A stretch of DNA of 64,000 bases, taken from NCBI RefSeq assembly GCF_006345805.1, contig NC_042997.1, positions 71,362,001-71,426,000 of the forward strand, written 5' to 3'. Under the pieces are notes generated by a model. It saw only the letters and a list, made by a program, of their open reading frames with translations, made no database searches and was not told the origin of the DNA. Position numbers and translations under genes: made by a program. The stretch is from Octopus sinensis (lineage: Eukaryota). This document shows, one piece after another, positions 5,700-58,749 of the stretch; positions within the stretch are counted from its first letter, which is position 1; every line of letters starts with the position of its first letter.

Positions 5700-6640
5700 G
5701 AGCATGCTGAAAATGAATTCTAAATATACGAATGCAAAAAGAAATAAAGAGAATGAATTCTAGTAAGACAACAAAACGAAGAAAATAAAAATAGTAAGCA
5801 AATAAAAAAAACATTCAACAATTTAAGACAATATATTTTGAAGATTACGATAAAGAAATTATTTAAGACAAAAGGCATAAGAATGCAAAAAAGATCTGCA
5901 TCTTAAAAGATATAATACTGAATCTAAAACTGACCATAGCAAACTTATGCCACTTTTCCTGTGCAGGGTACAATCTTGTACCTAACTATGAAGAAAAAGA
6001 TAGAAACCTTTGAAATATGGATCTTTTGCAGATTGGTCAGCATAAGCTGGAAAGACAGGATAACAATTATTTATTGCCAACAGGGGCCTAAACATAGGGG
6101 GAACAAACAAGGACAAACGGATCAAGTCGATTACATCGATTGCAGTGCGTAACTGGTACTTATTTAATCGACCCCGAAAGGATGAAAGTAACGTAACGGC
6201 AGACGAAATAAACAAGGGGCTAAACACAGAGGGGACAAACAAGGACAGACAAACGGATTAAGTCGATTATATCGACCCCAGTGCGTAACTGGTACTTATT
6301 TAATCGACCGCGAAAGGATGAAAGGCAAAGTCGACCTCGGCGGAATTTGAACTCAGAGCGTAACGGCTGACGAAATACGGCTACGCATTTCGCCCGGCGC
6401 GTTAACGTTTCTGCCAGCTCACCGATACTAGAAAAGCTGAAAGTCTAAAACACCTATTATCGAGACTCAGGTCCACTGAGCTATTAAATGTTGGACATTG
6501 CATGCACCCAATACTGTTCTGACTATGGGACTGGAAAATAGGAGCCTTGTTGATGGTATGCATGCAACAGAGCACAGGAAACTGGAGAGCCTTGGTACGC
6601 CAACCACTGGACACAGAGAGAACTGGTTAATGGTTGATGA
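5700..6640 (+). mobile_element. Decayed RTE-clade LINE 3' portion, interrupted by a SINE
   Basis: IETFEIWIFCRLVSISWKDRIT (6000-6065) matches the RTE C-terminal IxAFEMWxxRRxLxISW motif. Boundaries approximate. Confidence 0.6.
6075..6421 (-). mobile_element. SINE family B (Deu/Nin-domain-like core) with a duplicated 3' part
   Basis: Minus strand gagctggcagaaacgttaacgcgccgggcg...gagttcaaattccgccgaggtcgactttgcctttcatcctttcg.ggtcgattaaataagtaccag. 6075-6210 repeats 6215-6325. Confidence 0.8.
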
Positions 6641-17365: not shown

Positions 17366-19347
17366 AAGAAGAAGAAGAAGAAGAAGAAGAAGAGAAGAAG
17401 AAGAAGAAAAGAAGAAGAAGAAAAGAAGAAGAAGAAGAAGAAGAAGAAGAAGAAGAAGAAGAAGAAGAAGAAAAATAATAAATTTGCAAGAGTGGTATAA
17501 AAGTAGTAGGATGTTGGTGAAATCCTCTTAAATGGTCAAGTGATCTAAAGGTGACCTGTTGCAGTTGTAATAGTAGTGATCGAAATTGTTCTGAATAAAT
17601 TCATGGGTAGTGACTGTTCTGAACATATTCCCTTGTAATAGTTTGGCCTATGTATTGCTCTCGACACCCAGAACAAGTTAATACATATATTAGGTTCTCG
17701 GAAGGGCATGTTACGTTGTTTTTCACTGTAAAACGTTGGCCGTCTTTGAAAGAGAACTCCGATCCCTCAATTAGGTCGATGCATAAATCACGGTTAGGTA
17801 TTCCGCATTTTTTTACTGACAGCTTGTTGTCGAGTGTACTTGGGCTTGTGTTAGGAGACTTTTCATAGATTTGGGTTGTCATTTGCTCTTTATGATGGTG
17901 TGCGTTTGGAGGAGTAAATTATTTTGTGGTCCCTTTTTAGTAGGGGAATGTTCTGGAGGATGATGTCGAAGGCTTCCTTGTTAAGAGGGTTGTGTGTGGA
18001 GATGTATGGCAGGGCTTTTGGTTGTAAATCCTTCTTTAATTTGAGATGTCTGAGTTCGTGGATGTTGAGCTGTAGGATACGTTGAAAGCCTGTATCAATT
18101 AGTGATGGTGGGTAGTTCCTGGTAATGAGTGTATCCTTTAGTTCATGTAGTCGTGCGTCCCTGGTGCTTGAATTAGAAACTATGGTACAAATCCACATTC
18201 TAGTGTGTCTGAGGTAGCATGAGTTGAACGGTAAATATTGATTGGAGTCCGTGAGCATATAGAATATATCTGTTTCTATTTCGTTGTTAGATTTTTTAAT
18301 GAGGATGTCGAGGAATAGAAGATGTTGATGGCTATATTCCATCATAAATTGAATGTTTACGTTAAGTCCATTTATAAGAGCTTGAAATTCTTTAAGTCTC
18401 TCTATAGTTTCTTGCCAAAGAATGAAACAGTCATACAAATACCTCGTTTTTCCTTTTTTCTGTCTGTGTGTCTCTCTTTTTTACTCTTGTGGGGGTTTGG
18501 TAACAGGTAGCAGGTAGTAGCAGCCCTAATATTTGATATGAGTTCTTGGTTCTGATTGTTTAAGCAGCAGTCGTAGCTGAGGAAGGAGGCGACGACAACA
18601 ACGACGACGACGAAGAAGGAGGAGGAGGAGGAGGAGGAGGAGGAGGAGAGAAAGAAGAGAAAAAATAATAAATAGGTAGAGGGAGAATGGGTTGCCATAT
18701 TTTTCTAGCACCTTACGATAACGACTGATTTCTAGATATCCAATGACTAGGTTAGTAAAGGGAGGAGCCATTCTCGTATCCATCGCAGTCCCCGATTTTT
18801 GTCGATAGAAGTTGTTTTTGAAGACAAAGTAGTTATTCTCCAAGATGAATTTTAACCTGTCTATTACGAATTCTTTTTTGATGCGATGTGGGGGTTCGTT
18901 GGAGTAATTCTCTAGCCAGTATTGAATTGCCTCTATTCCTCTGCTGTGGGGGATATTAGAATAGAGGTTGACTGCATCGAAGGATACTAGTAGGGTGTTT
19001 TTAATTATTGTCTTAGGTGGGTGATTGAGCATGTCTAGGTCGTCCCTTATGTAGCTTTTGACATGCATTAGGAATGGTTTTAAGACGATATCTGAAAAGT
19101 TACTGAGGCAGTGGGTTTCGCATGCGGGACCTGCTATTATAGGTCTTAATTTGAGGTCATTAGGAGTAGGGACCTTGTTTATTATGTCTGTGGCTCTCCT
19201 GCATGCGTTACTCAATGTCGCACTTTTGTGTATCTTAGGAATATCGTAGAATTGACTGGATTTACTCTTGAAGTTAGTCATATAATCATATTCCTTGTCG
19301 GTGAGCTCGTCTCTGTATAGGCTTAATATAGATTTTAGGTTTCTCAT

Positions 19348-19349
<2 letters not shown>
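16865..19349 (-). mobile_element. Penelope-like element (RT + GIY-YIG), 5'-truncated and disrupted
   Basis: RT motifs IPKIHK, LRPII, LVSFDAVNLYSNIPH, YRQKSGTAM, RYLYDCFILW (YxDD mutated). Endonuclease CGIPNRDLC...TCPSENLIYVLTCSGCREQYIGQT. The 3' region carries an HHR and ends in a CA/TG tract. Confidence 0.93.
16957..16994 (-). ncRNA. Hammerhead variant with U3-A8 core in the Penelope 3' region
   Basis: Minus strand taag TTGAAAA agtc-gcaaa-gact GAAAC cg GTA ctaa. Stem I is weak. Confidence 0.6.
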
Positions 19350-19425
<76 letters not shown>

Positions 19426-21934
19426 AAATCATCCTATTGATCCCCATTTCTCTTCAATCGATACCCATGAAAGATTCTCGAAAACTGCGCCACTATTTAA
19501 TGAAACATTCATCAAATATTCAATTCTTCACTTTCCAACATACTGTACATATTCATAACTAATTGTCTGATCTACAAATATGCAAAGTCAACAAAATCAA
19601 ATATCAAAATCAACAAATTTGCTGACAGGTGAACAAGAGTTAAGATAACAACGTTATTACCAAGAGCTAGGCTTTTATTCTAAGACATTATTATCACAGT
19701 CAACTGCTGTAGTCCATTAAATATGTTGTTGCTATTGTTGTTGATTAGCACCCAGATGAGTCCTGATTGAGCACACCGCTGATCAAAGACGTACCAATTC
19801 AATTTTCTTAAGAATAACTCATTCTTAAGAATAACTCATTTATATTTTAAAACTCCAGAGTGTGTATTCAGTGAGATTTGATAGTAACTTCTAACAGCTC
19901 AAGCAACCACATAGTAGTTCCCTATATTTGTGGTTTTACTGGTAGAAGGATCTGTTCTATGGACTATAACTCGATTTTCTCATAAATTTTAATTTATGTC
20001 AACATATATCATGTCTTTATTATTTAAACTGAATGCCAAATGAGCTAAAATAGTGACGCGTTAGACTGGACCAATATCAGACTGTCAATAACTATGTAGG
20101 TTGTGAGGCTTTGCCGAAGAACTAATCTACATCTGATAATTCCAGAAACACTAGAATTGTTTCCTTTTAGCATTATAGTATATAATTGATATTTCTCTCT
20201 TTCTAAGGTGACAAGCTGACAGAGTGCCTACCATCCCTTTTGTCCATCTTTACGCCGGGGGTTGACTTTGCCGTTCATCCTTTCGGAGTCGATAAAATAA
20301 TTACCAGTCGAGCACTGGCGTCGATGTAATTTCTGACCTTGTGTCAAAATTTGAAGTCAGTAGTTCTCCCTTTCTGCCTTCTAAATTGCATAGTAGTAGT
20401 GCTGATTTGCTTGAATTTTTGGATCGACTTACTAACGATAACTAATACACTGCCTAATGAAATGTAATTTTTTTCTAATAAGGTTAAACGTCCTAAGATA
20501 TTTCAGCAATAGAGAATCCGTAACAACGCAGGCATTATTGAAAAAGAATATAGTTGACATATATTTTGATATATGAATATTTCAAGTCAGGCAAAACGCT
20601 TAGAGGCATTTCGTCCATCTTAAGCTTCTGAGTTCAAATTACATTGTAGTCGAATTTGTGTTTATCTTTTCGGGGCTCATAAAATAAGTAGCAGTTTAGG
20701 CGCACCCCCGGAATTGCTGGCCTTGTGGCAAGATTTGAAATCAATATTTCAGATCATAGACAAGATAAAACAGAGATTGAGGCAAGAGTAAGGATTAGAT
20801 TCGAAGTAAAATAAATTTATCGATAGGCAGACAGCGTCTCTGAGCATTTTCGCCTGCCACAGAGTTTTAGTGAGAAAAATATCCCTATCACCGGCTGTAC
20901 CTATACAAATAGTTCTCCAGTAGCAGTCAGTCTATTCAAACAAATTCACGACCATTTCGTTTATAAATGTAAAATTCAAGTATTTTTTGCATCCCAGTAT
21001 GAAGAGATTGCGTTGACATATTTTGTTGGGCGTAAGTGGAAAATGCGTTATGACCTATTGTGTGTTTGAAATCTAAATACGAGAAGTACTAACAATGTTC
21101 TAATTATTTAGCTTACCTTATAGATATTTCGAGCTATATAATCCAGAAACAACACTGTGATCTGTTATGACTTGAAAAAAGGTATATGTGTCAGGCATAA
21201 ATACGGTCTTCTGAGAAGTTTATTTCAGCAATGGCTTATTCTCAGTTTTGTCATGTTTGTGGGTTGTGGTTCGAAACATCAGTAGAATAAAACAGTCATT
21301 TATTCTCGAAAACAATTCGTTCATTGTTGACCGTTTCTTCTGTTCCAATTTCAAATATAAACGTTTCATAACATTTTCTCAAAATCGAGAATTTATTCTA
21401 CAAATTGTTTGAAAATCTTTAATGATTTATTTTATTATATATATTTTTTAATGTACCTTAGTTATTCTGTTATTGATTACATACTTCTTTGACTGTTGTT
21501 ATTTCTCATGAGTATTATTTGAGTTTTTTCGATTCTTTATATAGGCATACTGCGGCGGCTGGAGTTGTTTCATGTTTCGTTTCGTCTTTTGTTTTGTTGA
21601 ATGGCTGCGTTTCTTTTGATGCTTGCCAATGGTCAACATATTAATATGCATGAACATACATACACACATTTACACCCACGTTTGCTTCAGAGCGTGTATG
21701 TATACCGTTTGTAATTACTAATAAGTAAAGGTATTTCTTTATACGTACATATGTATGAATATTGTTTAGTACGCAGACACACACACATACGCACACACAC
21801 AAACACGGCTACACATGCTTACATAGGGCTGAGTGCGTATGTGTATGTGACTGTATGTGTGTGTGTATGTGTGTAAGTATGCATGTATGTATATATGTGT
21901 GTGTATGTATGTATACACACACACACACACACAT

Positions 21935-23800: not shown

Positions 23801-25678
23801 TCGAGCTCTACCTCCTATCGTCAGGAAGATATTGTGAAATAACCACTTTTCAATCCCCAACCAATACGTACCCACCCTAATCAGCTAAGTAAACTAATTC
23901 TACACAAACACACACGCATCAGCCTATACTCATAACAATCTACAAATACTATTTAACAATGATAACGGACTGACACACGTACAAAGTACACACACTTACT
24001 GCACAAGCACATAAACCTAGGGCATAAACAAACATACATAGGTCAACTTGCCAACTCATCAATCACATAACATCTATCGACCAACAATATTTTTATAAGA
24101 AATTTGCACATAAATATAACAGATGTTATGTCTGATCATTTGTGGAGGAATACAGTTAAGATACTAGGTAGAGATTGACAGTGGAATATAAGGCGACTGA
24201 AAATAGGCTGAACAAAATGAACGCCATATGGGAGCCTTTAAGTCTACAACCATAAAAAAGTTAGGCTTAAAACTTGTTTTTATTAACGAGTTGCCCTGCG
24301 AGACAATGAGATAATGAATATAATCGTTGATTACGTGTCAACTGCAATAGCTTATCTAGTGGGTGAGAGTTTATCCCTTGGGCAGTCAAATTATATATAC
24401 TCAGACTGAAGCTGAAGATGAAAGTAGTATCACAAATATTAAGATAACTAGTAACGGTTATCCTTGGTATGGGAAACTAAAAAAATCCATCCCCGTAGAC
24501 CTAAAATTCAAAAATGAATATTAAATTCAGAGAACATTACCGAAATGAGAGGTGCCTGTAGAGAACCGGGGGGTATAGTGACGAAAATGTGTTGGAGACA
24601 GACTGCATGAACCAGAATAGGGTCATAATATAATTAATGTATATGATTCATTTTTAAAAATATCGTTGGGTGTAATTTGATTGTGATAGGACGGGTGATA
24701 ATATTGGGGGTCCATTAACATTCTTGTTGTTGTTGTTATTTGTTTTCTTTAGTATCAGATTAAACTTGACAGAGCAGACATATGACTGAAGGAATTACAA
24801 CCATGACTACCTTAGGAAAGTGTAATTGCTGTTTCTAGCGTGCACTTGTTTTTGCTAGTTGTTGTTTGTTTCGTTGTCATGGAAATAACTGTTGTTCTTT
24901 TTGTAGTATTTCTTCGTCCCTGATTACATTTGACTTATCATTGTAATCAAATGAAACATATTTGATCCTGTTAAATTCTCTGATGCTTTGCTTGTTGTCC
25001 TGAGTAGTCCGAGAAGTTGATTCCAGATAGTAAGGTTAGTGTTCCAGCGGTTCAAGAGTTATGTTCCTGTCCCTTCAGCTTAGATCAAGTAATTATCTAG
25101 ATAACTGATTCTCGGTCATGATTTCGATACTTGATTGTACATAGTTCAACATCACGTCTGCTGCTTATATCTTTGCAAAAAGACACAAACATACACACTT
25201 ATCAGACCTATTTATAGTTAATTGAACAGTGAGTTCATTTCTTTTGCTATCTTCTTCAATATCCTATCCCGTTTCCTTGGGGATTAATCCACAGTTTAAG
25301 ACGGGCTCTTCACTAAACACTGAACAATTCGCTCTCGTTACTGATTCCTGTTCTTGGCAAGAACAGTAGCTTTGCCAAAGTTAATAATGCATCCATTAAG
25401 CTCAGCACCATCTTAGCAAATCTATGGACACCGAATAGTTCCGATGGATCAAGATCAACCGATTCTTTGATTTAAGCCATGATACTATTTTTGTAGCTGA
25501 GAGTAATGACTTGTCAGAAACAGCAAAGTTGCTTGACTAAATAACGTATGAAAAATTTTCCTTCTTTGTATGTACTCAAGATGTTGAACATATTGCTTTT
25601 ATTATTGCGCTAATTGATAATATTAACAGTAGTAACATGGGTGGTTCACAGGTTTAATAGCATTATAAGCTATAAAAG

Positions 25679-26160
25679 ATAAAATCAGAACGAAGTCTTA
25701 AGGATGTAGTGAGCATCTCCCTACTTAAAAATGAGAGCTAAAGTCTCAATTCAACCATCAATCAAAAATATTTGCCATAGATGGTATTAACAATACTAAC
25801 ATCTTATATCGAATATAAACATTCGAATGTTTTTGCTCATAAATATTTTGCACTATGCGTTGCTGGTTCTTGCCGCAAAACAAGCCAGAGCGCTAAAGGA
25901 TTTATAACGTAGCGGATTTGGAACTTTTTGCCCGGTAACTCATACCGAAGAAGGTTAAGGCTCTCGGGCCAACACCTAAAACCATGGTTTATGACTATCT
26001 GAGCGGCATAATCTTTATAGGTATGCTTTTTAATCCTTTATCCGTTTCCTCGCATACTGTTATTTTCTATTATTCTGGTGTCGTCTGGCAGTTGAACTGA
26101 GACTTTAGCTCTTATTTCTAGATAGGTTGATCCTCATTGCATCCGTAAGGCTTCGCGCTG

Positions 26161-26167
<7 letters not shown>
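25679..26167. repeat. Imperfect ~78 bp inverted repeats around a ~335 bp spacer (MITE-like)
   Basis: 25679-25756 (ataaaatcagaacgaagtctt...agagctaaagtctcaattcaac) matches the reverse complement of 26091-26167. Confidence 0.7.
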
Positions 26168-26200
<33 letters not shown>

Positions 26201-26202
<2 letters not shown>

Positions 26203-29200
26203 TTTAACAATTAAGGATAATCTCTTAATAAGGGATCTTAACAAGAAATTATCGGGTAGCTAGCGTGAAAACCTCGTAAAAGAAAAGAATTCGAAAATAA
26301 TTTTTTTCTTTTGAACAAATTAATTATATCTATATTGTATAGAGGGCATTATTACACATAAATGCCTCACACTAGGAGGGACAAAGTCATTACTACCAAA
26401 ATTATACTAATCATACCCAAATGCAGTTTTTCAAAGCAAGACATTTAAAAAAATGAATTTACTTCTGTATCACCGTGATTTCACATTCAACTTTACGTCT
26501 AATGATCGTCAGCAGAACTGATTCTGAATACATCATAAATAAACTACCAACCTTACGTAGCGGAGACAAACAGACAACTGCTCACTCCGGCCAAGCACAT
26601 GGAATGTTATAAATCATATATCCGGTAAATGGCGGGCTTTTTACGAACTGCATGTCGGGTAATGAAAAGTATTTCGGAATAAGTTTAACAATTAAGGATA
26701 ATCTCTTAATAAGGGATCTTAACAAGAAATTATCGGGTAGCTAGCGTGAAAACCTCGTAAAAGAAAAGAATTCGAAAATAATTTTTTTCTTTTGAACAAA
26801 TTAATTATATCTATATTGTATAGAGGGCATTATTACACATAAATGCCTCACACTAGGAGGGACAAAGTCATTACTACCAAAATTATACTAATCATACCCA
26901 AATGCAGTTTTTCAAAGCAAGACATTTAAAAAAATGAATTTAGTTCTGTATCACCGTGATTTCACATTCAACTTTACGTCTAATGATCGTCAGCAGAACT
27001 GATTCTGAATACATCATAAATAAACTACCAACCTTACGTAGCGGAGACAAACAGACAACTGCTCACTCCGGCCAAGCACATGGAATGTTTATAAATCATA
27101 TATCCGGTAAATGGCGGGCTTTTTTACGAACTGCATGTCGGGTAATGAAAAGTTTTCGGAATAAGTTTAACAATTAAGGATAATCTCTTAATAAGGGATC
27201 TTAACAAGAAATTATCGGGTAGCTAGCGTGAAAACCTCGTAAAAGAAAAGAATTCGAAAATAATTTTTTTCTTTTGAACATTAATTATATCTATATTGTA
27301 TAGAGGGCATTATTACACATAAATGCCTCACACTAGGAGACAAAAGTCATTACTACCAAAATTATACTAATCATACCCAAATGCAGTTTTTCAAAGCAAG
27401 ACATTTAAAAAAAATGAATTTAGTTCTGTATCACCGTGATTTCACATTCAACTTTACGTCTAATGATCGTCAGCAGAACTGATTCTGAATACATCATAAA
27501 TAAACTACCAACCTTACGTAGCGGAGACAAACAGACAACTGCTCACTCCGGCCAAGCACATGGAATGTTTATAAATCATATATCCGGTAAATGGCGGGCT
27601 TTTTTACGAACTGCATGTCGGGTAATGAAAAGTATTTCGGAATAAGTTTAACAATTAAGGATAATCTCTTAATAAGGGATCTTAACAAGAAATTATCGGG
27701 TAGCTAGCGTGAAAACCTCGTAAAAGAAAAGAATTCGAAAATAATTTTTTTCTTTTGAACAATTAATTATATCTATATTGTATAGAGGGCATTATTACAC
27801 ATAAATGCCTCACACTAGGAGGGACAAAGTCATTACTACCAAAATTATACTAATCATACCCAAATGCCCAAAGCAAGTTTTAAAAATTACTTTAAACTTG
27901 ACTTTCATTTCACATCTCAACTTTACTCTAATGTCGTCAGCAGAACTGATTCTGAATACATCATAAATAAACTACCAACCTTACGTAGCGGAGACAAACA
28001 GACAACTGCTCACTCCGGCCAAGCACATGGAATGTTTATAAATCATATATCCGGTAAATGGCGGGCTTTTTTACGAACTGCATGTCGGGTAATGAAAAGT
28101 ATTTCGGAATAAGTTTAACAATTAAGGATCTCTTAATAAGGGATCTTAACAAGAAATTATCGGGTAGCTAGCGTGAAAACCTCGTAAAAGAAAAGAATTC
28201 GAAAATAACTTTTTTCTTTTGAACAAATTAATTATCTATATTGTATAGAGGGCATTATTACACATAAATGCCTCACACTAGGAGGGACAAGTCATTACTA
28301 CCAAAATTATACTAATCATACCCAAATGCAGTTTTTCAAAGCAAGACATTAAAAAAATGAATTTAGTTCTGTATCACCGTGATTTCACATTCAACTTTAC
28401 GTCTAATGATCGTCAGCAGAACTGATTCTGAATACATCATAAATAAACTACCAACCTTACGTAGCGGAGACAAACAGACAACTGCTCACTCCGGCCAAGC
28501 ACATGGAATGTTTATAAATCATATATCCGGTAAATGGCGGGCTTTTTTACGAACTGCATGTCGGGTAATGAAAAGTATTTCGGAATAAGTTTAACAATTA
28601 AGGATAATCTCTTAATAAGGGATCTTAACAAGAAATTATCGGGTAGCTAGCGTGAAAACCTCGTAAAAGAAAAGAATTCGAAAATAATTTTTTTCTTTTG
28701 AACAAATTAATTATATCTATATTGTATAGAGGGCATTATTACACATAAATGCCTCACACTAGGAGGGACAAAGTCATTACTACCAAAATTATACTAATCA
28801 TACCCAAATGCAGTTTTTCAAAGCAAGACATTTAAAAAAATGAATTTAGTTCTGTATCACCGTGATTTCACATTCAACTTTACGTCTAATGATCGTCAGC
28901 AGAACTGATTCTGAATACATCATAAATAAACTACCAACCTAGTAGCGGAGACAGCAACAGACAACTGACACTCCGGCCAAGCACATGGAATGTTTATAAA
29001 TCATATATCCGGTAAATGGCGGGCTTTTTTACGAACTGCATGTCGGGTAATGAAAAGTATTTCGGAAAAGTTTAACAATTAAGGATAATCTCTTAATAAG
29101 GGATCTTAACAAGAAATTATCGGGTAGCTAGCGTGCGTGAAAACCTCGTAAAAGAAAAGAATTCGAAAATAACTTTTTTCTTTTGAACAATTAATTATAT

Positions 29201-29931
29201 CTAATTGTATAGAGGGCATTATTACACATAAATGCCTCACACTAGGAGGGACAAAGTCATTACTACCAAAATTATACTAATCATACCCAAATGCAGTTTT
29301 TCAAAGCAAGACATTTAAAAAAATGAATTTAGTTCTGTATCACCGTGATTTCACATTCAACTTTACGTCTAATGATCGTCAGCAAACTGAACTGATTCTG
29401 AATACATCAAAATAAACTACCAACCTTACGTAGCGGAGACAAACAGACAACTGCTCACTCCGGCCAAGCACATGGAATGTTTATAAATCATATATCCGTA
29501 AATGGCGGGCTTTTTTACGAACTGCATGTCGGGTAATGAAAAGTATTTCGGAATAAGTTTAACAATTAAGGATAATCTCTTAATAAGGGATCTTAACAAG
29601 AAATTATCGGGTAGCTAGCGTGAAAACCTCGTAAAAGAAAAGAATTCGAAAATAATTTTTTTCTTTTGAACAAATTAATTATATCTATATTGTATAGAGG
29701 GCATTATTACACATAAATGCCTCACACTAGGAGGGACAAAGTCATTACTACCAAAATTATACTAATCATACCCAAATGCAGTTTTTCAAAGCAAGACATT
29801 TAAAAAAATGAATTTAGTTCTGTATCACCGTGATTTCACATTCAACTTTACGTCTAATGATCGTCAGCAGAACTGATTCTGAATACATCATAAATAAACT
29901 ACCAACCTTACGTAGCGGAGACAAACAGACA
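26201..29931 (-). repeat. Left arm of tandem array: ~7.8 copies of a ~481 bp HHR-containing monomer
   Basis: Units start agtttaacaattaagg at 26201, 26682, 27164, 27645, 28112, 28588, 29069 and 29556. HHR on the minus strand in each unit. Confidence 0.97.
26942..27000 (-). ncRNA. Type I hammerhead ribozyme, representative left-arm copy
   Basis: Reverse complement of 30325-30383. Other copies at 26461, 27422, 28365, 28848 and 29816; damaged copies at ~27900 and 29331. Confidence 0.85.
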
Positions 29932-32900
29932 AACTGCATTTGGGTATGATTAGTATAATTTTGGTAGTAATGACTTTGTCCCTCCTAGTGTGAGGCATTT
30001 ATGTGTAATAATGCCCTCTATACAATATAGATATAATTAATTTGTTCAAAAGAAACAAAATTATTTTCGAATTCTTTTCTTTTACGAGGTTTTCACGCTA
30101 GCTACCCGATAATTTGTTGTTAAGATCCCTTATTAAGAGATTATCCTTAATTGTTAAACTTATTCCGAAATACTTTTCATTACCCGACATGCAGTTCGTA
30201 AAAAAGCCCGCCATTTACCGGATATATGATTTATAAACATTCCATGTGCTTGGCCGGAGTGAGCAGTTGTCTGTTTGTCTCCGCTACGTAAGGTTGGTAG
30301 TTTATTTATGATGTATTCAGAATCAGTTCTGCTGACGATCATTAGACGTAAAGTTGAATGTGAAATCACGGTGATACAGAACTAAATTCATTTTTTTAAA
30401 TGTCTTGCTTTGAAAAACTGCATTTGGGTATGATTAGTATAATTTTGGTAGTAATGACTTTGTCCCTCCTAGTGTGAGGCATTTATGTGTAATAATGCCC
30501 TCTATACAATATAGATATAATTAATTTGTTCAAAAGAAAAAAATTATTTTCGAATTCTTTTCTTTTACGAGGTTTTCACGCTAGCTACCCGATAATTCTT
30601 GTTAAGATCCCTTATTAAGAGATTATCCTTAATTGTTAAACTTATTCCGAAATACTTTTCATTACCCGACATGCAGTTCGTAAAAAAGCCCGCCATTTAC
30701 CGGATATATGATTTATAAACATTCCATGTGCTTGGCCGGAGTGAGCAGTTGTCTGTTTGTCTCCGCTACGTAAGGTTGGTAGTTTATTTATGATGTATTC
30801 AGAATCAGTTCTGCTGACGATCATTAGACGTAAAGTTGAATGTGAAATCACGGTGATACAGAACTAAATTCATTTTTTTAAATGTCTTGCTTTGAAAAAC
30901 TGCATTTGGTATGATTAGTATAATTTTGTAGTAATGACTTTGTCCCTCCTAGTGTGAGGCATTTATGTGTAATAATGCCCTCTATACAATATAGATATAA
31001 TAATTTGTTCAAAAGAAAAAAATTATTTTCGAATTCTTTTCTTTTACGAGGTTTTCACGCTAGCTACCCGATAATTTCTTGTTAAGATCCCTTATAAGAG
31101 ATTATCCTTAATTGTTAAACTTATTCCGAAATACTTTTCATTACCCGACATGCAGTTCGTAAAAAAGCCCGCCATTTACCGGATATATGATTTATAAACA
31201 TTCCATGTGCTTGGCCGGAGTGAGCAGTGTCTGTTTGTCTCCGCTACGTAAGGTTGGTAGTTTATTTATGATGTATTCAGAATCAGTTCTGCTGACGATC
31301 ATTAGACGTAAAGTTGAATGTGAAATCACGGTGATACAGAACTAAATTCATTTTTTTAAATGTCTTGCTTTGAAAAACTGCATTTGGGTATGATAGTATA
31401 ATTTTGGTAGTAATGACTTTGTCCCTCCTAGTGTGAGGCATTTATGTGTAATAATGCCCTCTATACAATATAGATATAATTAATTTGTTCAAAAGAAAAA
31501 AATTATTTTCGAATTCTTTTCTTTTACGAGGTTTTCACGCTAGCTACCCGATAATTTCTTGTTAAGATCCCTTATTAAGAGATTATCCTTAATTGTTAAA
31601 CTTATTCCGAAATACTTTTCATTACCGACATGCAGTTCGTAAAAAAGCCGCCATTTACCGGATATATGATTTATAAACATTCCATGTGCTTGGCCGGAGT
31701 GAGCAGTTGTCTGTTGTCTCCGCTACGTAAGGTTGGTAGTTTATTTATGATGTATTCAGAATCAGTTCTGCTGACGATCATTAGACGTAAAGTTGAATGT
31801 GAAATCACGGTGATACAGAACTAAATTCATTTTTTAAATGTCTGCTTTGAAAAACTGCATTTGGGTATGATTAGTATAATTTTGGTAGTAATGACTTTGT
31901 CCCTCCTAGTGTGAGGCATTATGTGTAATAATGCCCTCTATACAATATAGATATAATTAATTTGTTCAAAAGAAAAAAATTATTTTCGAATTCTTTTCTT
32001 TTACGAGGTTTTCACGCTAGCTACCCGATAATTTCTTGTAAGATCCCTTATTAAGAGATTATCCTTAATTGTTAAACTTATTCCGAAATACTTTTCATTA
32101 CCCGACATGCAGTTCGTAAAAAAGCCCGCCATTTACCGGATATATGATTTATAAACATTCCATGTGCTTGGCCGGAGTGAGCAGTTGTCTGTTTGTCTCC
32201 GCTACGTAAGGTTGGTAGTTTATTTATGATGTATTCAGAATCAGTTCTGCTGACGATCATTAGACGTAAAGTTGAATGTGAAATCACGGTGATACAGAAC
32301 TAAATTCATTTTTTTAAATGTCTTGCTTTGAAAAACTGCATTGGGTATGATTAGTATAATTTTGGTAGTAAGTAATGACTTTGTCCCTCCTAGTTTGAGG
32401 CATTTATGTGTAATAATGCCTCTATACAATATAGATATAATTAATTTGTTCAAAAGAAAAAAATTATTTTCGAATTCTTTTCTTTTACGAGGTTTTCACG
32501 CTAGCTACCCGATAATTTCTTGTTAAGATCCCTTATTAAGAGATTATCCTTAATTGTTAAACTTATTCCGAAATACTTTTCATTACCCGACAGGCAGTTC
32601 GTAAAAAAGCCGCCATTACCGGATATATGATTTATAAACATTCCATGTGCTTGGCCGGAGTGAGCAGTGTCTGTTTGTCTCCGCTACGTAAGGTTGGTAG
32701 TTTATTTATGATGTATTCAGAATCAGTTCTGCTGACGATCATTAGACGTAAAGTTGAATGTGAAATCACGGTGATACAGAACTAAATTCATTTTTTTAAA
32801 TGTCTTGCTTTGAAAAACTGCATTTGGGTATGATTAGTATAATTTTGGTAGTAATGACTTTGTCCCTCCTAGTGTGAGGCATTTATGTGTAATAATGCCA

Positions 32901-33387
32901 TCTCTACAATATAGATATAATTAATTTGTTCAAAAGAAAAAAATTATTTTCGAATTCTTTTCTTTTACGAGGTTTTCACGCTAGCTACCCGATAATTTCT
33001 TGTTAAGATCCCTTATTAAGAGATTATCCTTAATTGTTAAACTTATTCCGAAATACTTTTCATTACCCGACATGCAGTTCGTAAAAAAGCCCGCCATTTA
33101 CCGGATATATGATTTATAAACATTCCATGTGCTTGCCGGAGTGAGCAGTTGTCTGTTTGTCTCCGCTACGTAAGGTTGGTAGTTTATTTATGATGTATTC
33201 AGAATCAGTTCTGCTGACGATCATTAGACGTAAAGGTTGAATGTGAAATCACGGTGATACAGAACTAAATTCATTTTTTAAATGTCTTGCTTTGAAAAAC
33301 TGCATTTGGGTATGATTAGTATAATTTTGGTAGTAATGACTTTGTCCCTCCTAGTGTGAGGCATTTATGTGTAATAATGCCCTCTAT

Positions 33388-33391
<4 letters not shown>
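29932..33391 (+). repeat. Right arm of tandem array: ~7.2 inverted copies of the same monomer
   Basis: Unit ends ttgttaaact at 30160, 30642, 31121, 31602, 32078, 32563 and 33043. Runs into (TA)n at ~33391. Confidence 0.97.
30325..30383 (+). ncRNA. Type I hammerhead ribozyme, representative right-arm copy
   Basis: agttctg CTGACGA t-catt-a-gac-gtaaa-gtt-g-aatg-t GAAA tcac-g-gtga TA cagaact. 7 bp stem I, AUA cleavage triplet. Other copies start at 30807, 31285, 31764, 32243, 32725 and 33207. Confidence 0.85.
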
Positions 33392-33420
<29 letters not shown>

Positions 33421-33423
<3 letters not shown>

Positions 33424-35973
33424 GTCATCCCATAAGTTCTGTTCAAATTTTGAATAAAAAAAAACAAGTGATCAAATGTTACGAGGGGCATTCAATAAGT
33501 AATGCCCCTGACCCACTTGCAGTTGTTTGATCTAGCTGAAATTTTGCATGTGCACTTATTTATACCTCTATAGATTAAGTAGCGAATTAGAGCTCTGAAA
33601 TAATTGTGGTTTCTGATTTACAGGTGTTTGAACTGAGTCAAGTGTGAAATGGAGCCTGTTGAGTGTCGAGCAGTAATCCAGTTTTTGTATTTGAAAGGAC
33701 GCACACCACGGGAGACTTTTGATGAAATGAAAGTAACTTATGGGGATGATGCCCCATCCTATGACCTTGTAAAACGCTGGCATTGTGAATTCAAACATAG
33801 TCGGAACTCTGTGGAAACAGCTCCCAGATTTGGTCGCCCCCTTCTGCCGTTGATGGAACGTCTGTCCGTCAAGTTGAGGCTGCCATTTTGGAAGGTCAAC
33901 GCATAACTATTCGCCAAATAGCCCATAAGGTCAAGATTAGTACCGGGTCTGTGGAAACTATCATTCATGACCATTTGCATATGCAAAAGGTGTCTGCCAG
34001 ATGGATTTCCAGGTTGCTCACACCTTTCCAGAAGCAAGAACGCGTTGAGTGCTCGAGGATGAATTTGGAGATGTGCCAAGAAGATGAGTCAAAATTTTTC
34101 AAAAGACTGATCACACAGGATAAAACCTGGGTCCATCACTATGATCCATAGACCAAAGCCCAGTCAATGCAGTGAAAGCACCGTGACTCACTTCCTCCAA
34201 AGAAGGCAAGGGTGCAGCCCTCCGCTGACAAGGTTATGCTCACAGTCTTCTGGGACCAGGACGGAGTAGTGATGACAGATTTCCTGGCAAAGGGTACCAC
34301 AATTACAGGAACCTATTATGCTTCACTTTTGAGGAAATTAAGAGAAGCTATCAAAATCAAGAGGCGGGGCAAGATCAGCAAAGGCATCCTCCTCCTGCAG
34401 GACAACGCTCCGGTCCACAACTCGCTTGTCGCCAGATCAGAAGCACAGGCGTGCAGCTATGAACTCCTCCCCTTGCACCCTCTGATTTTCACCTCTTCCC
34501 AGCCATGAAGTTGATTTTGAAAGGAAAGCGTTTCCCAGATGATGCAGCCTTGATTTCTGGAGTCATGTCGTGGTTGGAGGACCAAGCTGGGGTCTTCTAC
34601 AAAAACGGTCTCCAAAGCTGTATCAATCGATGGGAGAAATGCATAACTCTGGGTAGTTCCTATTTAGGAAAAGACTAATAACTGTGCCAAGTGTCGTTGC
34701 TCTACTGCTATGTAAAGTGGGTCAGGGGCATTACTTATTGAACGCCTCTCGTATTGAAATTTAATCATCAATGTACTTTCCCTGATTATCTATGACTTCC
34801 TTCCATCTATTTACAAGCTTTTTAATCCCATCAATGTAAAACTCTTTTGGTTTCAAAGCGAAGAAATCTGAAATGTCAGTTTCGACCTCCTCCTGGCTTG
34901 CGAAAGTTATGTCCCCCAAATGATTCTGTAAACTACGAAACAAATGGTAGTCTGAAGGAGCAAGGTCGAGAGAATAAGGTGGATGAGGAATTCTTTCCCA
35001 ACCAAGCATTTCAATCTTCTGTGATGTGATCTTTGCAGTGTGGGCTTACACATTGTCCTAATGAAACATCACTCCTTTTCGATTCACTAAAGCGGGTCAT
35101 TTTTCTTCAAAGCTTCATTCAAATGCTCTAATTGCTGACAGTATACTTCAACATTGATTGTTGCATTAGGTGGTAACGATTCAAAGTGAATTACTCCTTT
35201 GCAATCCCACCAGATAGAGAGAAGAACCGTTTTTTCCATGAAGTTCCATTCTCGATTGTGGTTGAGCTTTTTCCCTTTTACCAAGCCACTGTTTACGACG
35301 TTTAACATTTCGATAGAAGATCCATTTTTCGTCGCCAGTCACAAGTCAATCGAAAAAGGGTGAAATGAGTTCGTGAGAATGGATAGAAGAGCAGATGTCA
35401 ACTCAGGATTTGCGGTTGCTTTCGGACAATTTATGAGGCACCCATTTTCCAAATTTAGGAACCTTTCCAAGTTGTTGAAGATGACGATGAACAGTTGTAT
35501 GGTTTGAACTAAGCTTTATTGCCAATTTTTCAACTGATAATGCCGGATTTTCTTCCAGTAATGCCTCAAGGAGCTTATCATCAAACTCAACTGGACGTCC
35601 TGTTCGATCTTTATCTTCAAGGCTGAAATCCCCACTTCTCAATTTTGCGGACCATCTTCTGCAAGTTCTTTCATTCAGGCATTCTATTTACAAAACTGAG
35701 TGTATGTTTCAAGTCGCTTCGGCTGCAGAGTTTCCTTTTTTGTACTCAAAAAGCATTATGTGCTTTAAATGCTCTTTGGATACTGCCATGTGAGAAATGG
35801 TTTTAATCAAAGAAAATTTAAATCTATTATTCTGTAAAATAATATTCAATTAATGTAAATGTACACAAATGCATAAAAATAATTTTTAATTCCATTAGAC
35901 ATTCTAAAATTCTATTAAATTTCATTCAATTTTAAAAAAGGTAAAATCGGACAGAACTTATAGGATGACCTTG
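33421..35973 (-). mobile_element. Mariner transposon (outer), decayed transposase 35789-34761
   Basis: TIRs caggtcatcccataagttctgt / acagaacttataggatgaccttg within (TA)n. MAVSKEHLKHIMLFEY..., WVPHKL, TGDEKW, HPPYSLDLAPSDYHLF. Confidence 0.95.
33482..34751 (+). mobile_element. Mariner transposon (inner, nested), decayed transposase 33649-34678
   Basis: TIRs cgaggggcattcaataagtaatgcccctgacccactt and its reverse complement at ~34716-34751. TA duplication. Motifs ITQDKTWVHHYDP and LLQDNAPVH. Confidence 0.95.
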
Positions 35974-48499: not shown

Positions 48500-50999
48500 T
48501 AGTTTTATTTTTATAGCGTGCTTTCACTTCACTACCGAGCGCAGCTCTATGTGTCTTGGGTATGTGCTGTGATTTGTTGTGATGCCCTGATGGTTATTGT
48601 ATGGAAAGTGTTCTGCGTAGATTGGGTGCAGTGCCTAGTAGTGCAATTTTCTGTATGTTATATGTGTTTGTAAGTCCTGGTGTTTTTGTTATGTATTTGT
48701 CTGAATATTTTTTTATCATGCCTAATGCACCTACTATGATAGGAATTGTTTCTGTTTTTAGATTCCACATTCTGGTTACCTCCATTTCCAGGTCTTTGTA
48801 TTTTGAAAGTTTCTCCATTTCTTTTAGAGACACGTTGTCATCTGCTGGTATTGATCGGCATATCCCAGAGTATGGTTGCTTTCTCGTTTTCTGTGACCTT
48901 TTCTGGTGTGTGCCTATACCATCTCTTTTCTGTTGTTATTCCATAATGTTGGAATAGCTTCCAGTGTATGTAGGTTCCAACTCTGTCATGTCTGAATATA
49001 TTCCTTCTTAGCCAGGACTGGGCAGCTAGAGATGATATGATTTACTGTTTCTTGTCCATCTCCACATATTCTGCAGTTGCTTGTTATATTTCTTTTCATT
49101 ACATGTTTTTGGTAATTTCTGGTGAGGAGGCTTTGGTCTTGTGCTGCAGTTAAAAATCCCTCTGTCTCTGCTTTGAGTCCTGAGCTTCTCAACCATTGCT
49201 GGGATTTTTCTTTGTCTATTTCTTTTGCATTTAGTTTAGTCCAGTATTTTCCGTGAAGGGGTTTTTCTTGCAATCGTTTTATCATGGTTCTTTGCTGTTC
49301 TAGATTCAGTTTGGATTTCATTTGTTTTATAGCTTTTGTTGTTTCTTCATCTTCTTCTTCTTCTTATTTGTTAGGTGGTATGATTTCTTGTTTGTATTTG
49401 TCAGCTTCCTTAAATACTGAGAACAGTTTTTTGTTTTGCTCGTGTTTTGCCGCTATTTGTATCAGTTTTCCTTCCTTCTGAAGTAGATATTTTTGCAGTC
49501 CTATGGTGGTTATTTTATAGTAGTTTTCCAGCTGTATAAGGCCTCTACCACCTTCTATACGTTGTATATATAGTCTTTCTATGTCAGATTTTGGGTGATG
49601 CATCCTAGACCCTGTTATTATTTTTCTTGTTTTCCTATCTATGTTGGTCAGTTCATTTAGTGTCCAGTTAAGGATATTGTAGCTGTAACTTATAACTGGG
49701 ACAGCTAAAGTGTTAATACCTATTATCTTGTTTTTAGCATTGAGCTCTGTTTTTAGTATTGATCTAACTCGTCTATAATATTCTTTTTTTATTTTCTCTT
49801 CATTTGTGTGTGTTGTGTCTTATCTAGTTCATGGATTCCTAAGTATTTGTAAGTTTGGCTTTGGTCTAATTCTTTTATTTCATTGGTTTTATCTAGTGTG
49901 ATGTTGCTACTCTTAACTAGTTTTCCTCTTTTCAGGGTTACTTTGGCGCATTTTTCTAATCCAAATTTCATATCTATTTCTTTGGTAAATCCATGAACTG
50001 TCTTTAATAGTGTTTCCAGCTGTTTGTCATTTGCAGCGTATAGTTTTAGGTCATCCATATATAAAATGTGGCTGATCGTTTTGCCGTAACATTTATATCT
50101 GCATCCAGTTCTATTTAGCATATCAGATAGAGGTGACAGTGCTAAGCAGAAAAGGAGTGGAAAGAGCGTGTCTCCCTGGAATATTCCTCTTCTAATGGGG
50201 ATGGCTTTGGTTTTCATGAGTCCCTCTTTTGTTTGGAGCTGTAGCACTGTCTGCCATTTATTCATAGAGTGCCCATGAATTTTATAATTGTTGGTGCTAC
50301 TTTGTTAATGGCTAGTGTTTCGAGGATCCATGTGTGGGGGATGCTATCAAACGCCTTTTTGTAGTCGATCCAGGCCATACTGAGGCCTTTCTTCTTTCTG
50401 TGGCTGTCTTCAGTTATAGCTTTATTGATCATTAGTTGATCTTTACATCCGTATGAGCCTTTGCGGCATCCTTTCTGCTCTTCTGGAAACAGGTTGTTTT
50501 CGTCCAGGTGCTTGTTCAACCTTTGCGATATCACTGCAGTAAATACCTTGTACATCGTAGGGAGACAGGTTATTGGTCTGTAGTTTTCTGGTTTTGCTGT
50601 CTCATTTGATTTGGGAATTAAGATGGTTTTCCCCTTCGTGAGCCATTCAGGCATTGTCTCTGGCTCTGCTAGTATGTTGTTAAAATTTTCAGCCAGGTTT
50701 TTGTGCATTCCTGTTAGATATTTCAACCAAAAGTTGGGGATCTTGTCATGCCCAGGTGCCTTCCAGTTGCTTAGATTTGCAGTGCCTGGGTGACCTCTTC
50801 AGTTGTTATGGGGGTCCAAAGTTGCTCAGATGCTGAGTTTGTTATTTCAATACTCCTTTTTTTTGGTTGTTCGTTCGCCGACCATATTTCTCTCCAGAAT
50901 TCTTCCACTTCTTCTGCCGTTGGTGCTGCAGTGATTTCTATTTTATTTTTGCCAAGTTCTTGGTAGAATTTTTTGGGGGTTGGAGTTGAACTTTTTGTT
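48496..50999 (-). mobile_element. R4/Dong-type LINE (RT, CCHC finger, RLE), 5'-truncated and frameshifted
   Basis: NYRPITCL, EQKGC, WIDYKKAFDSIPH, GIFQGDTL, LYMDDLKLY, CRICGDGQETVNHIISSC, KYKDL. Flanked by (TAA)n, the known Dong target. Confidence 0.92.
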
Positions 51000-51100
51000 T
51001 ATTATTATTATTATTATCATTATTATTATTATTATTATATTATTATTATTATTATCATTATTATCATTATTATTATTATATTATATCATCATCATCATTA

Positions 51101-51141
<41 letters not shown>

Positions 51142-51173
51142 TATCATTATTATTATTATTATTATCATCATCA

Positions 51174-51226
<53 letters not shown>

Positions 51227-51227
51227 T

Positions 51228-51283
<56 letters not shown>

Positions 51284-51324
51284 TATTATTATCAGCAATA
51301 TTGTTGTTGTTGGTGGTGTTGTTG

Positions 51325-52894
51325 TTCTGAAAGACATTCGGATAGTTCTTAATTACTGGTTATTCTTTACTTGAAAGGAGGCAATAACAAATCACCAAAG
51401 TTTTCAAGTGGTGCCTTCAATTGTGACTCAAACAGACAATAGTTTCCTTAGAATGCGAGCTGTACCCAACAATGCAGTCTTCTGGATCACCTCGAGCCTG
51501 ACAGTAGCTCTAGTATTCTTAATATGTTTTTGAAAACCCTTGGAAATTGCTCCCAAAGCTCCAATTATCACCGGTATCACCATCACTTTCCTTATGCCCC
51601 ACAACTTTCTTATCTCCTCCCGCAGTGGCTGGTATTTCTCAATCTTTTCTTTTTCCTTACATTTCACCCTCCAACCGCCTAGTATTGCAACATCTATTAT
51701 TTTTACTTCTTTTTCATCGTTATGGATGAGCACATTATCTTGTCGTTTACCTCTATGACTTCGTCGCACTGCATGTAAAAATCTCAGAGTAATCCGTAAT
51801 GTTCGCTTTCCATTACTCCCTCTGGCTTGTGTTAATACTATTGTTTGACTCTCACGAAGTTTGCTTTATCGCACAACAGCCAGTGGAGATATCTGGCCAT
51901 ATTGTCGTGTCTCCTTTTGTATTCGAGTTATGCGAGCTGACAGCACTCACTAACAATGTGGTTTATACTTTCTCTCTCCTCACTGTGGCGAGTCAGAGCT
52001 TTTATCAATGTGTTGTTTGGAGTAGTTTGTTCTGAGAGCTTGTTCTTTAACGCTGCACACTAGTGCCTCAGTGGGCCCTTTTAAGTCTCCTTTCTGCAGG
52101 CATTGCCAGGTTCTATTCCAATCAATCTCATCTTTATTTTTCAAGAACTGACTGTGCATTTTCTTGTCCTGCCAAATTTTATTCATCTGCTCTCTCCGGT
52201 CTTTCATAATTTGTGTTGGATCTACGTTCACTTTTAAGGTTCCCTACATTTTCACTGCTTTAATCATTTCTTCTTTACTCCCCTTGACATACCAAGTCAG
52301 GCTATTCTCCTCTTCCCTTACACAACCTTCACAATACACCAATCCTCGTCCTCTTTACCTGCAATCTTGACACATCACTCTTGGGGTGTAGTTCCTCGTT
52401 TATTGTCATTAATTTACGTGTTCTCCGGTCTATCTCTTGTAATTCATGCTTCTTCCAAGACACTATTCCTGTCCCATGTTTCATCAAAGCAACAACTCAC
52501 GTCTTAATTGTTCTAATCTTATAGCGGCCATTTAGCTTCGATTGGAGCACAAGCCGAGTTCTCTCAAAAAAATCCTTTTCTGTACATTTCTTACATCTTG
52601 TGGTCATTCTCTTTCAATGGTACCCTAGTACTTATAGCCTTCCTCTCCGACTTCCTTCATAATTTCACCACTTTCCAGCTTGATCCTATGGCTTTTACTG
52701 ATTTTCACCCTTTTGAGAATCATTACATCATATTACTCGATCCCAAATTCCATGCCAATATCTTTGCTAATCATCTGCACAGTTGCCGTCAAACTCTCAA
52801 TTTATTCTGTTTTAGCAAATAGCTTTAGGTCATCCAAAAACCACAGGTTGTTTACTTTCACCCTGCTTAGCATGTATCCCAAAAATAATCATCC
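51325..52894 (-). mobile_element. Older R4/Dong-type LINE fragment
   Basis: GDLKGPTEALVCSVKEQALRTNY and IIDVAI..KIEKYQPL..VIIGALG..IQKTALLGTARIL. Bounded by (TAA)n-type tracts. Confidence 0.85.
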
Positions 52895-57344: not shown

Positions 57345-58749
57345 CATATAAATTCATAAACCCCCTTTCTCAATACATAAAAGAGAATTGGAAAAGTTTC
57401 CTGGACGACTGTTTTATACTCTGGAATGAAAACACAGATAAACTCCTAAAATTCAAAAACCTATTGAACAGTATCAACCCAAATATACAGATCACAATGG
57501 GGTACAACCAAAAGGAGCTTCCATTCTTAGATATACTGATTTAAAAAATTAACCTAAAAATAGAAACAGACATATTCTATAAAAACAACAGACGCCAAAC
57601 AATACCTACTTTTTGATTCATGCCACACAAGACACACTAACACAAACATCCCTTTCAACCTTGCAAGAAGGATATGCACAGTAGTGTCAGAACAAAATAC
57701 CAAGAACTCAAAAACACCCTAATTGATAGACACTACCCAGTTCAACTTATAAAGAATGGGATCAGACGTGCAACAGAAATCGACATAGAAACTTTGAGAA
57801 AAGTTCAACACAACAACACACCTTCCCCGAAAATACTGCCTTACATATCCGCATACAACCCCAGACAACAAAGAAGCCTTCACCATCATCACCCAGAATT
57901 TACCAACACTTCATAAGGACCCCAAATTAAAGGAAATTCTAAACATACATAAAATCATTAAAAGCTACAAACAACCGAAATTACTAAAAAATATTCTCAC
58001 AAATGCAAAATTGTTTTCTGAAATTACGGATATAAAAGTAAAACAATGTGGTAGACCAAACTGTGCAACATGCCCAAACCTTCAAGAAGGATCAGAATTC
58101 CTTTTCAAAGCGGGAAAAAATTCAAGATGAAATCTAATTTTACTTGTGTTTCTGAAAACATAATTTATGTCATAAGATGCTCGGGTTGCCACCAAAACTA
58201 CATAGAGTCCACGGGATTATCACTCAGACGCAGATGCACTCTGCATCGACGACAGATTGCATTCCCAGAATACAGAATGATACCCTTTAGTGAGCATATT
58301 GAGAAATGCGCAAAGCAACTACTACTACAATTTTTCATCTTTCCATTCTATCGATGTGCCATTGGAACACCAACACAGATTAGATTAAACAAGGAAACAT
58401 TCTTCATTGAAAAATATAAGCCTAAACTTAACCATCCTAACATTCTTATACAGAGAAACTCATCTCATTGAAAAAAAGAAAAAATATATAAAGCGATTAT
58501 CTCCCTTATACCTGAAGAAATCCCCGATTACCTCCCCCTGCCTGGAACTCTTCTTTGCACTACATAACGAAGACATGACACGATGTAGGTAAAGAAATTT
58601 GAGAAATTTGAAAAGTTTACACGAAACAGGTTATTTCTCCAAAAACTGTGTTACTATACACAAAATTTTATAAATTTTTCTAACATAACAACTTAAATAT
58701 ATTCTTTAACCTTATAAAACAAGCCTTCTGTAGTTTTTTCCCACTTTTC

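Follow-up and report, generated by a model that had tools for sequence, protein, structure and literature searches.

Back-to-back arrays of a hammerhead repeat in Octopus sinensis point to two-ended reverse transcription by a Penelope-like enzyme, probably on a circular RNA

Retrozymes of metazoans that lack long terminal repeats (non-LTR retrozymes) are described as non-coding tandem repeats of low GC content, with strongly self-paired monomers of 150-450 bp that carry one type I hammerhead each (PMC7229834). The movement of animal retrozymes is treated as a hypothesis in that work, in which Cervera and de la Pena (2020) proposed that reverse transcription of a primed circular RNA yields tandem complementary DNA (cDNA) and named Penelope-like elements (PLEs) as a candidate. 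Endonuclease-positive (EN+) PLEs carry a hammerhead in their terminal repeat and are found in (TA)n targets with an inverted, 5'-truncated copy and a tail of 30-40 bp that is often present at one end only (PMC8557442, PMC3846280); how their tandem and inverted structures form is presented as an open question in PMC8557442. For the PLE protein PAc (Poseidon, Anolis), the reaction described by Frangieh et al. 2024 (PMC11167929) has the purified protein, a predicted dimer, nick and extend both strands of an AT-rich target and start reverse transcription inside the RNA, at two sites that delimit the tail, not at the RNA 3' end; hammerhead cleavage was dispensable for insertion in vitro, where unprocessed RNA was the main substrate. 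Based on phylogeny, with a link through the PLE terminal repeat (pLTR), and on co-occurrence, a preprint (bioRxiv 10.64898/2026.07.22.740005) regards retrozymes as non-autonomous PLE derivatives and suggests that their arrays arise by local amplification. Here, we analysed a stretch of 64,000 nucleotides of the Octopus sinensis genome (contig NC_042997.1, positions 71,362,001 to 71,426,000 of the forward strand; "the window"), which contains a back-to-back array of a 482-base hammerhead-bearing repeat, together with other copies of this repeat in the same genome. The PLE signature of inverted arm, one-sided tail, (TA)n target and two starts of reverse transcription is known; here it is found on a non-coding repeat with the features of a hammerhead retrozyme.

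In the window, a unit of 481-482 bp is repeated in tandem, with 7.8 copies on the minus strand (26198-29937) and 7.2 copies on the plus strand (29931-33401), giving 15 copies across the back-to-back array, which is flanked by (TA)18 and (AT)15 according to Tandem Repeats Finder (TRF). When monomer positions are numbered from the predicted hammerhead cut, with the natural copy at 30377-30858 as reference, position ~370 of one arm abuts position ~40 of the other at the flip (~29932), and these unequal positions exclude a symmetric fold-back. The hammerhead-sense strands of both arms face outward and the outer ends run into (TA)n, reading ...GTTAAACT followed by TATA on the left (26201) and ...CTATACAA followed by TATA on the right (~33391). 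These ends correspond to two sites of the monomer, termed site A (~267, left) and site B (~135, right) in the following, and the ribozyme cut site is at neither.

The monomer (482 nt, ~33% GC) has a longest open stretch of 73 codons and hence no open reading frame (ORF) and no coding capacity; without an ORF for a reverse transcriptase (RT) and a GIY-YIG endonuclease, it is not an autonomous PLE. The unit contains a type I hammerhead motif with stem I AGTTCTG/CAGAACT, the core CTGACGA...GAAA, a short palindromic stem III and a predicted cut between GAUA and C, which is present at 14 of the 15 expected places, with a degraded stretch near 27900. Searches against Rfam at gathering score gave no match in the window (positions 25500-27200 returned only two chance matches to small nucleolar RNAs) and the hammerhead was not recovered when its region was folded without constraints (z 0.03), so that the assignment is based on the pattern and on conservation: across related families the core is kept and stem I shows compensating variation (355 motif matches, 82 of them distinct). 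The monomer itself is strongly self-paired as RNA (z -5.5). By these sequence features, the unit would be classified as a non-LTR retrozyme; it resembles those of PMC7229834 in all characteristics listed above, except that its 482-nt monomer slightly exceeds their size range. The word "inverted" is absent from the main text of PMC7229834, and its passages on these repeats describe neither fixed starts nor a two-armed form. The octopus monomer also occurs in contigs of runs that we guess to be RNA, although such contigs cannot show strand, ends or circularity.

A search of the octopus genome returned 956 candidate places, 40 of which were scored, i.e. the window and 39 others retrieved besides it; end patterns led to 123 further clusters on contigs C1-C5, and 100 of these brought the total to 140 loci. 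In the 100 pattern-chosen loci one end is fixed by the selection and the partner end is free. Two arms with outward sense strands were seen in 107 of the 140 loci. Among these, 98 have one end at A and the other at B (A/B), none is A/A or B/B, and the remaining nine comprise three A/B loci with an internal complication, one clipped by the retrieved interval and five that combine A with a non-standard end. The 40 loci chosen independently of their ends gave A/B in 27 of 31 two-armed cases, and their nine single-armed members all end at A or B. Independent site choice at each end would predict about half same-site pairs, compared to none observed next to 98 mixed ones. Exact end patterns were found 240 times for A and 263 times for B genome-wide, and not at all for a control site within the monomer whose TA homology is better. 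On C1-C5, the 87 A and 95 B ends among the matches listed form 41 outward pairs, each of them A with B, and one triple, with 97 clusters unpaired among these matches. The target is (TA)-rich on both sides in 79 of the 98 A/B loci and on one side in 19, and target-site duplications are unreadable inside (TA)n. The repeat is therefore dispersed and mobile, given the 956 candidate places and the 240 and 263 exact ends; its outer registers are fixed and the inner junction alone varies; and the inversion is real, recurrent and the normal form of the family. Older, related hammerhead families of ~75% identity (L230-L259; L031 7473-7795; 2,241 candidate places) are likewise two-armed and retain site B as well as a fixed end equivalent to A; in most of them the base of stem II is a canonical G-C pair.

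The original prediction, made from the window alone, had described the array correctly with regard to the flip at ~29932 with outward hammerhead strands and no symmetric fold-back, the outer ends in (TA)n at different registers away from the cleavage site, and the seven to eight rounds per arm. Its expectation of variable start registers among arrays was wrong, since two fixed sites are used, one per arm. It had also reserved a fixed start for a linear template; the fixed start was found, but the conclusion of a linear template does not follow from it, because the PLE RT starts internally in the reaction of PMC11167929.

The two arms of a locus carry the same allele in 477 of 483 comparisons at 10 common polymorphic sites, whereas agreement between loci is 68%. 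In template coordinates, arm B reaches further upstream in 36 of the 98 A/B loci and arm A in 29, with differences of up to 3.8 kb, and in 11 loci (e.g. L071, L126, L161) each arm has at least 20 nt of monomer that are absent from the other. The latter loci argue for separate priming of the arms, since a snap-back copy would require heavy secondary deletion. In 33 of the 98 loci, the stops of the two arms are no more than 20 nt apart in template coordinates, compared to a mean of 4.8 and a maximum of 14 such loci in 10,000 permutations; rare alleles in these symmetric insertions, one shared between the arms and 12 unshared, are uninformative. In several of the symmetric short insertions (L090, L101, L115, L117, L132, L144, L163), the inner ends cluster at monomer positions 59-74, possibly a transcript start or a strong RT stop. 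Both arms derive from one RNA species and often, apparently, from one molecule, and we regard two-ended priming at two sites as very likely.

Inner ends lie near the hammerhead cut site in 11 of 130 cases (11.1 expected), or in 6 of 54 for long arms (4.6 expected), and indels at this site affect 19 of 360 passes, which equals the median rate across positions. With neither preferential ending nor scars there, the template was continuous across the hammerhead site. Template jumping between linear monomers as the main route was rejected, since indels at the cut site are not in excess; run-off at the cut was likewise rejected for lack of overall enrichment of ends, although 4 of the 33 symmetric short insertions have their ends at most 20 nt from the cut. 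The variants along the units of both arms fall into 104 fixed, two present in all units but one, 94 singletons, 13 subsets and two mirrored patterns, and 28 long loci represent 20 haplotype classes with essentially one haplotype per insertion, covering both arms. In the window, the rare alleles 192C and 387C occur in 15 of 15 units and are the majority allele in just 4 of 91 and 2 of 62 other loci, respectively; private alleles are also fixed in all units of both arms in L040 (6/6), L063 (7/7), L119 (8/8) and L121 (5/5). A private allele in 15 units of two orientations implies a single-unit bottleneck followed by amplification, and a monomeric circle would supply both at the reverse transcription step, but the bottleneck could also lie upstream of it, e.g. 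in a linear multimer made from a circle. We consider a circular template the more probable form, and we prefer an insertion that copied a circular monomer in rolling-circle fashion to a local amplification at a later stage. Broken or linear RNAs would have been used as well, to judge from the symmetric short class.

The junction in the window has an exact overlap of 2 nt (AA) and reads CAAACTGC, whereas a clean join at AACTGC would read CAACTGC; the extra A may be a homopolymer error of the assembly. Junctions were resolved in 95 of the 98 A/B loci. Of 63 asymmetric junctions, 35 have no extra bases and 28 do, in part perhaps because anchoring failed at errors of the assembly. The 35 insert-free junctions have a mean overlap of 1.83 nt, compared to 0.76 nt in random joins, and 20 of them overlap by at least 2 nt, against a share of 19% among random joins. 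When 17 inserts were compared with neighbouring sequence, the mean match was 7.6 nt versus 5.4 nt and two inserts were individually beyond 200 random draws, which is suggestive of templating from nearby sequence. Templated inserts of this kind would be polymerase theta-like. Microhomology aids the joining but is short, and an overlap of 6 nt would be at the upper extreme. None of the short-read contigs among the 32 pieces listed out of ~2,970 (four runs) bridges the junction of the window, for which the assembly is consequently the sole source; all four runs, which stem from three studies, do contain short-read contigs in which the B end continues into TATATA.

Regarding the enzyme, the monomer inserts like a PLE. 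With EN+ PLEs (PMC8557442, PMC3846280) it shares head-to-head arms, a tail at one end, a (TA)n target and the hammerhead; unlike the elements described there, it has no ORF, its tail is ~130 nt long, compared to 30-40, long multimers can make up both arms, and the one-sided tail is a near-strict rule, counted over 107 loci. The parallels to the PAc reaction are two internal starts bounding a tail, an AT-rich target and the extension of both nicked strands; in the account of PMC11167929, however, the strands were not seen to differ in their start site, and inverted insertions and circles are unaddressed, whereas here each arm has its own site. The octopus genome also harbours a large young family that encodes RT and GIY-YIG in one frame, with an open frame of 804 aa in L261 in which Pfam finds RVT_1 at the cut-off and a weak GIY-YIG. 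Its 3' ends lie at two sites ~40 nt apart, and seven of eight visible inverted pairs have one of each, the remaining pair (L266) being ambiguous. This family shows no DNA similarity to the monomer and is a candidate helper only. In three places (L260 3800-4700, L051 4188-7020 and L079), retrozyme-type and RT-coding PLE insertions share one (TA)n tract, which is consistent with a shared target of retrozyme and PLE.

Based on these results, a single insertion appears reasonably likely, in which a PLE-like RT primed from both cut strands and went round one RNA, probably a circle, several times from each side. In such an event, the hammerhead would free the unit RNA and ligation would give a circle; a PLE protein, likely as a dimer, would bind the ~130-nt region between A and B and nick both (TA)n strands; sites A and B would each be primed by one of the DNA ends; each RT would run for 0.1 to 8 or more turns with strand displacement; and the two antisense cDNAs would be joined head to head via short microhomology or small inserts, with trimming of flaps. 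Short insertions with the same stop would come from broken or linear RNA, or from a shared stop, read by both RTs. In a more specific version, which we put forward tentatively, a PLE RT dimer would sit on one retrozyme circle at two fixed sites ~130 nt apart, with each subunit serving one strand of the cut (TA)n for up to ~8 turns, so that arrays would be born whole in one event and the structure of PLEs would be explained. The claim of priming from both sides of a (TA)n break with many units copied is hence supported, with 98 A/B loci out of 107 and 11 loci with disjoint arms, and a circular or multimeric template, also foreseen, is favoured by variants fixed across both arms and by the lack of scars at the cut site. 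The proposed AACTGC microhomology held as to joining by short overlap, but not as to its 6 nt. In the twin priming of L1 elements, two DNA ends prime on one RNA and the inversion is joined by microhomology, the second primer sitting at a variable internal site and the arms not overlapping. Twin priming of this kind was not borne out, since both starts are fixed here and the arms, many units long, overlap in template coordinates.

Several points weigh against priming on a circle by a PLE enzyme. We infer the circular RNA of the monomer family and assume the partner PLE enzyme; the 3' regions behind 49 endonuclease hits (16,599 endonuclease candidates in the genome, 150 of them scored) contained no pLTR with homology to the monomer, the sole similarity there being neighbouring retrozyme insertions (L079 and L260). 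In the young family, the base of stem II is a U-U pair, and cleavage may be weak. Single arms were scored in 33 of 140 loci; in five of these, the motif indicates a second arm of A type that is very short. The 33 same-coordinate insertions, none of which reaches the length of one unit, require a template end or stop, which an intact circle does not have. Arms that differ by whole units are not in excess (4 of 65 within 20 nt), and a collision of two RTs on one circle was rejected for lack of this signature. Moreover, 3 of 41 minority alleles are mirrored in the corresponding unit of the other arm (L063 at monomer position 366, L085 at 257), and L055 alternates between C and T over six units (position 55), which hints that some templates were multi-unit, dimeric or trimeric, or that the arms were converted. 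The mirrored alleles and the alternation would fit two-site, two-ended PLE priming on a linear multimeric RNA, which could be the transcript of a source array that was left uncleaved or a multimer that a host polymerase produced from a circle. Such a template would equally leave no scar at the cut site, and both the dispensability of cleavage with unprocessed RNA as main substrate in vitro (PMC11167929) and the non-canonical base of stem II, suggestive of weak cleavage, are in line with it. Single-unit mutations, however, would then give mosaics and shrinking arrays, in contrast to the private alleles fixed in every unit, and the 20 haplotype classes in 28 loci call for a monomer bottleneck somewhere, possibly upstream of the RT. 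We regard a linear multimer as rather unlikely.

A single priming with snap-back, by copying of folded-back cDNA or by self-priming on an antisense template as in PMC3846280, would leave the second end to endonuclease resolution and lose the centre asymmetrically later on; the 33 near-symmetric junctions of 98, several with short central palindromes, would suit it, and Craig et al. (PMC8557442) ascribe the tail to endonuclease resolution. It is improbable nevertheless: either arm may be the longer one (B in 36 loci, A in 29, with differences of up to 3.8 kb), 11 loci have arms that each carry sequence missing from the other, and the tail in vitro equals the spacing of two RT starts (PMC11167929). 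Later expansion in place of short two-armed insertions, by unequal crossover and gene conversion, would correspond to the local amplification of bioRxiv 10.64898/2026.07.22.740005; our data share with this preprint the PLE origin or mobilisation of animal retrozymes, but they add a signature of insertion geometry and indicate that the arrays were made upon insertion. Selection by similarity had picked the longest arrays, and a few variants (10 cases) are common to neighbouring units of one arm, as such expansion would have it, but both inverted arms are multimeric with common private alleles, the incomplete units that end at A and B are undamaged, as many as 15 units are already present in young loci of 98-99% identity, and 94 singletons persist, though many of these may be sequencing errors. 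We regard this course of events as very improbable. As to a fold-back chimera of sequencing or assembly, the junction of the window is unbridged among the contigs listed from four runs and the units carry indel noise, but a fold-back read would mirror its own flank and end type, whereas the flanks differ and A is always with B in 98 loci, the B end into TATATA is present in contigs of four runs and three studies, and families of ~75% identity share the form; the chance of such an artefact is negligible.

Table 1 Coordinates of the array and its parts in the window.
Feature	Position	Strand	Remark
Left half of (TA)n target	26165..26200	.	TRF, 18 copies
Arm A, 7.8 units, sense strand leftward; outer end at site A (~267), inner end ~370	26201..29932	-	
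Head-to-head junction	29931..29937	.	exact overlap AA at 29931-29932; AACTGC requires a one-base slip
Arm B, 7.2 units, sense strand rightward; inner end ~40, outer end at site B (~135)	29931..33391	+	
Type I hammerhead motif of one unit, predicted cut after 30376	30325..30383	+	pattern; without Rfam match
Predicted hammerhead cuts	30376, 30858, 31336, 31815, 32294, 32776, 33259	+	
Predicted hammerhead cuts	29823, 29338, 28855, 28372, 27429, 26949, 26468	-	
Segment of ~130 nt between start sites B and A, one unit	30511..30643	+	putative equivalent of the PLE tail, by analogy with PMC11167929
Degraded stretch of arm A over the hammerhead cut site of one unit	27860..27935	-	assembly error or real scar
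Right half of (TA)n target	33391..33420	.	TRF, 15 copies

Apart from the array, the window contains Penelope-like coding fragments for RT and GIY-YIG at 17890-19428 (minus strand) and 58055-58471 (plus strand), to which Pfam assigned no family; the second is part of a young family of very large size, which likewise ends in (TA)n. The stretch adjoining the array on the right (33421-34200) is presumably a mariner-type DNA transposon, and broken RT frames of a non-LTR retrotransposon, with a close relative in L108, occupy 48583-51865. At position 26230, contigs from the runs X9 and X11 leave the array into 255 nt of other sequence; this loose end was discarded as a partner element, as a 25-nt piece of it had no match in the genome at 0 or 2 mismatches. 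Among the other loci, L031 and L032 appear to be duplicates of one event, and in L035 a 55-nt A-ended stub (6543-6597) sits in (TA)n right behind an A-ended arm, as a second insertion or a complex event. An element of 1.7 kb with one open frame of ~470 aa, a weak match to a CCHC knuckle and no RT seen, often in tandem and with 111 genomic matches, lies within a 19-nt duplication at monomer positions 367-385 (L091 1874-3574, L141 3001-4273, L171, L177, L185, L190) and also at the matching site of a related family, and some of the composites may have moved with the retrozyme. The ORF of this element (monomer 385/367; L091, L141) was rejected as parent element, since it occurs at many unrelated sites and sits in the 19-nt duplication; the 1.7-kb element seems to be a separate element, which is non-autonomous and prefers certain targets.

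A literature search, with subscription papers and supplements outside its scope, returned no two-armed multimeric retrozyme, no counted rule of one site per end and no haplotype evidence for arrays born at insertion. The family joins two questions, the origin of the PLE structure as raised in PMC8557442 and the mobility of retrozymes as raised in PMC7229834. If the mechanism proposed here is true, the arrays would be genomic records of two-ended rolling-circle reverse transcription, and satellite-like arrays would be born whole in one event. The rule of one start site per DNA end would then explain the inverted, one-tailed structure of Penelope elements in general, and an RT able to produce kilobases of cDNA on a small circle, with integration of both ends, would also be an interesting enzyme.

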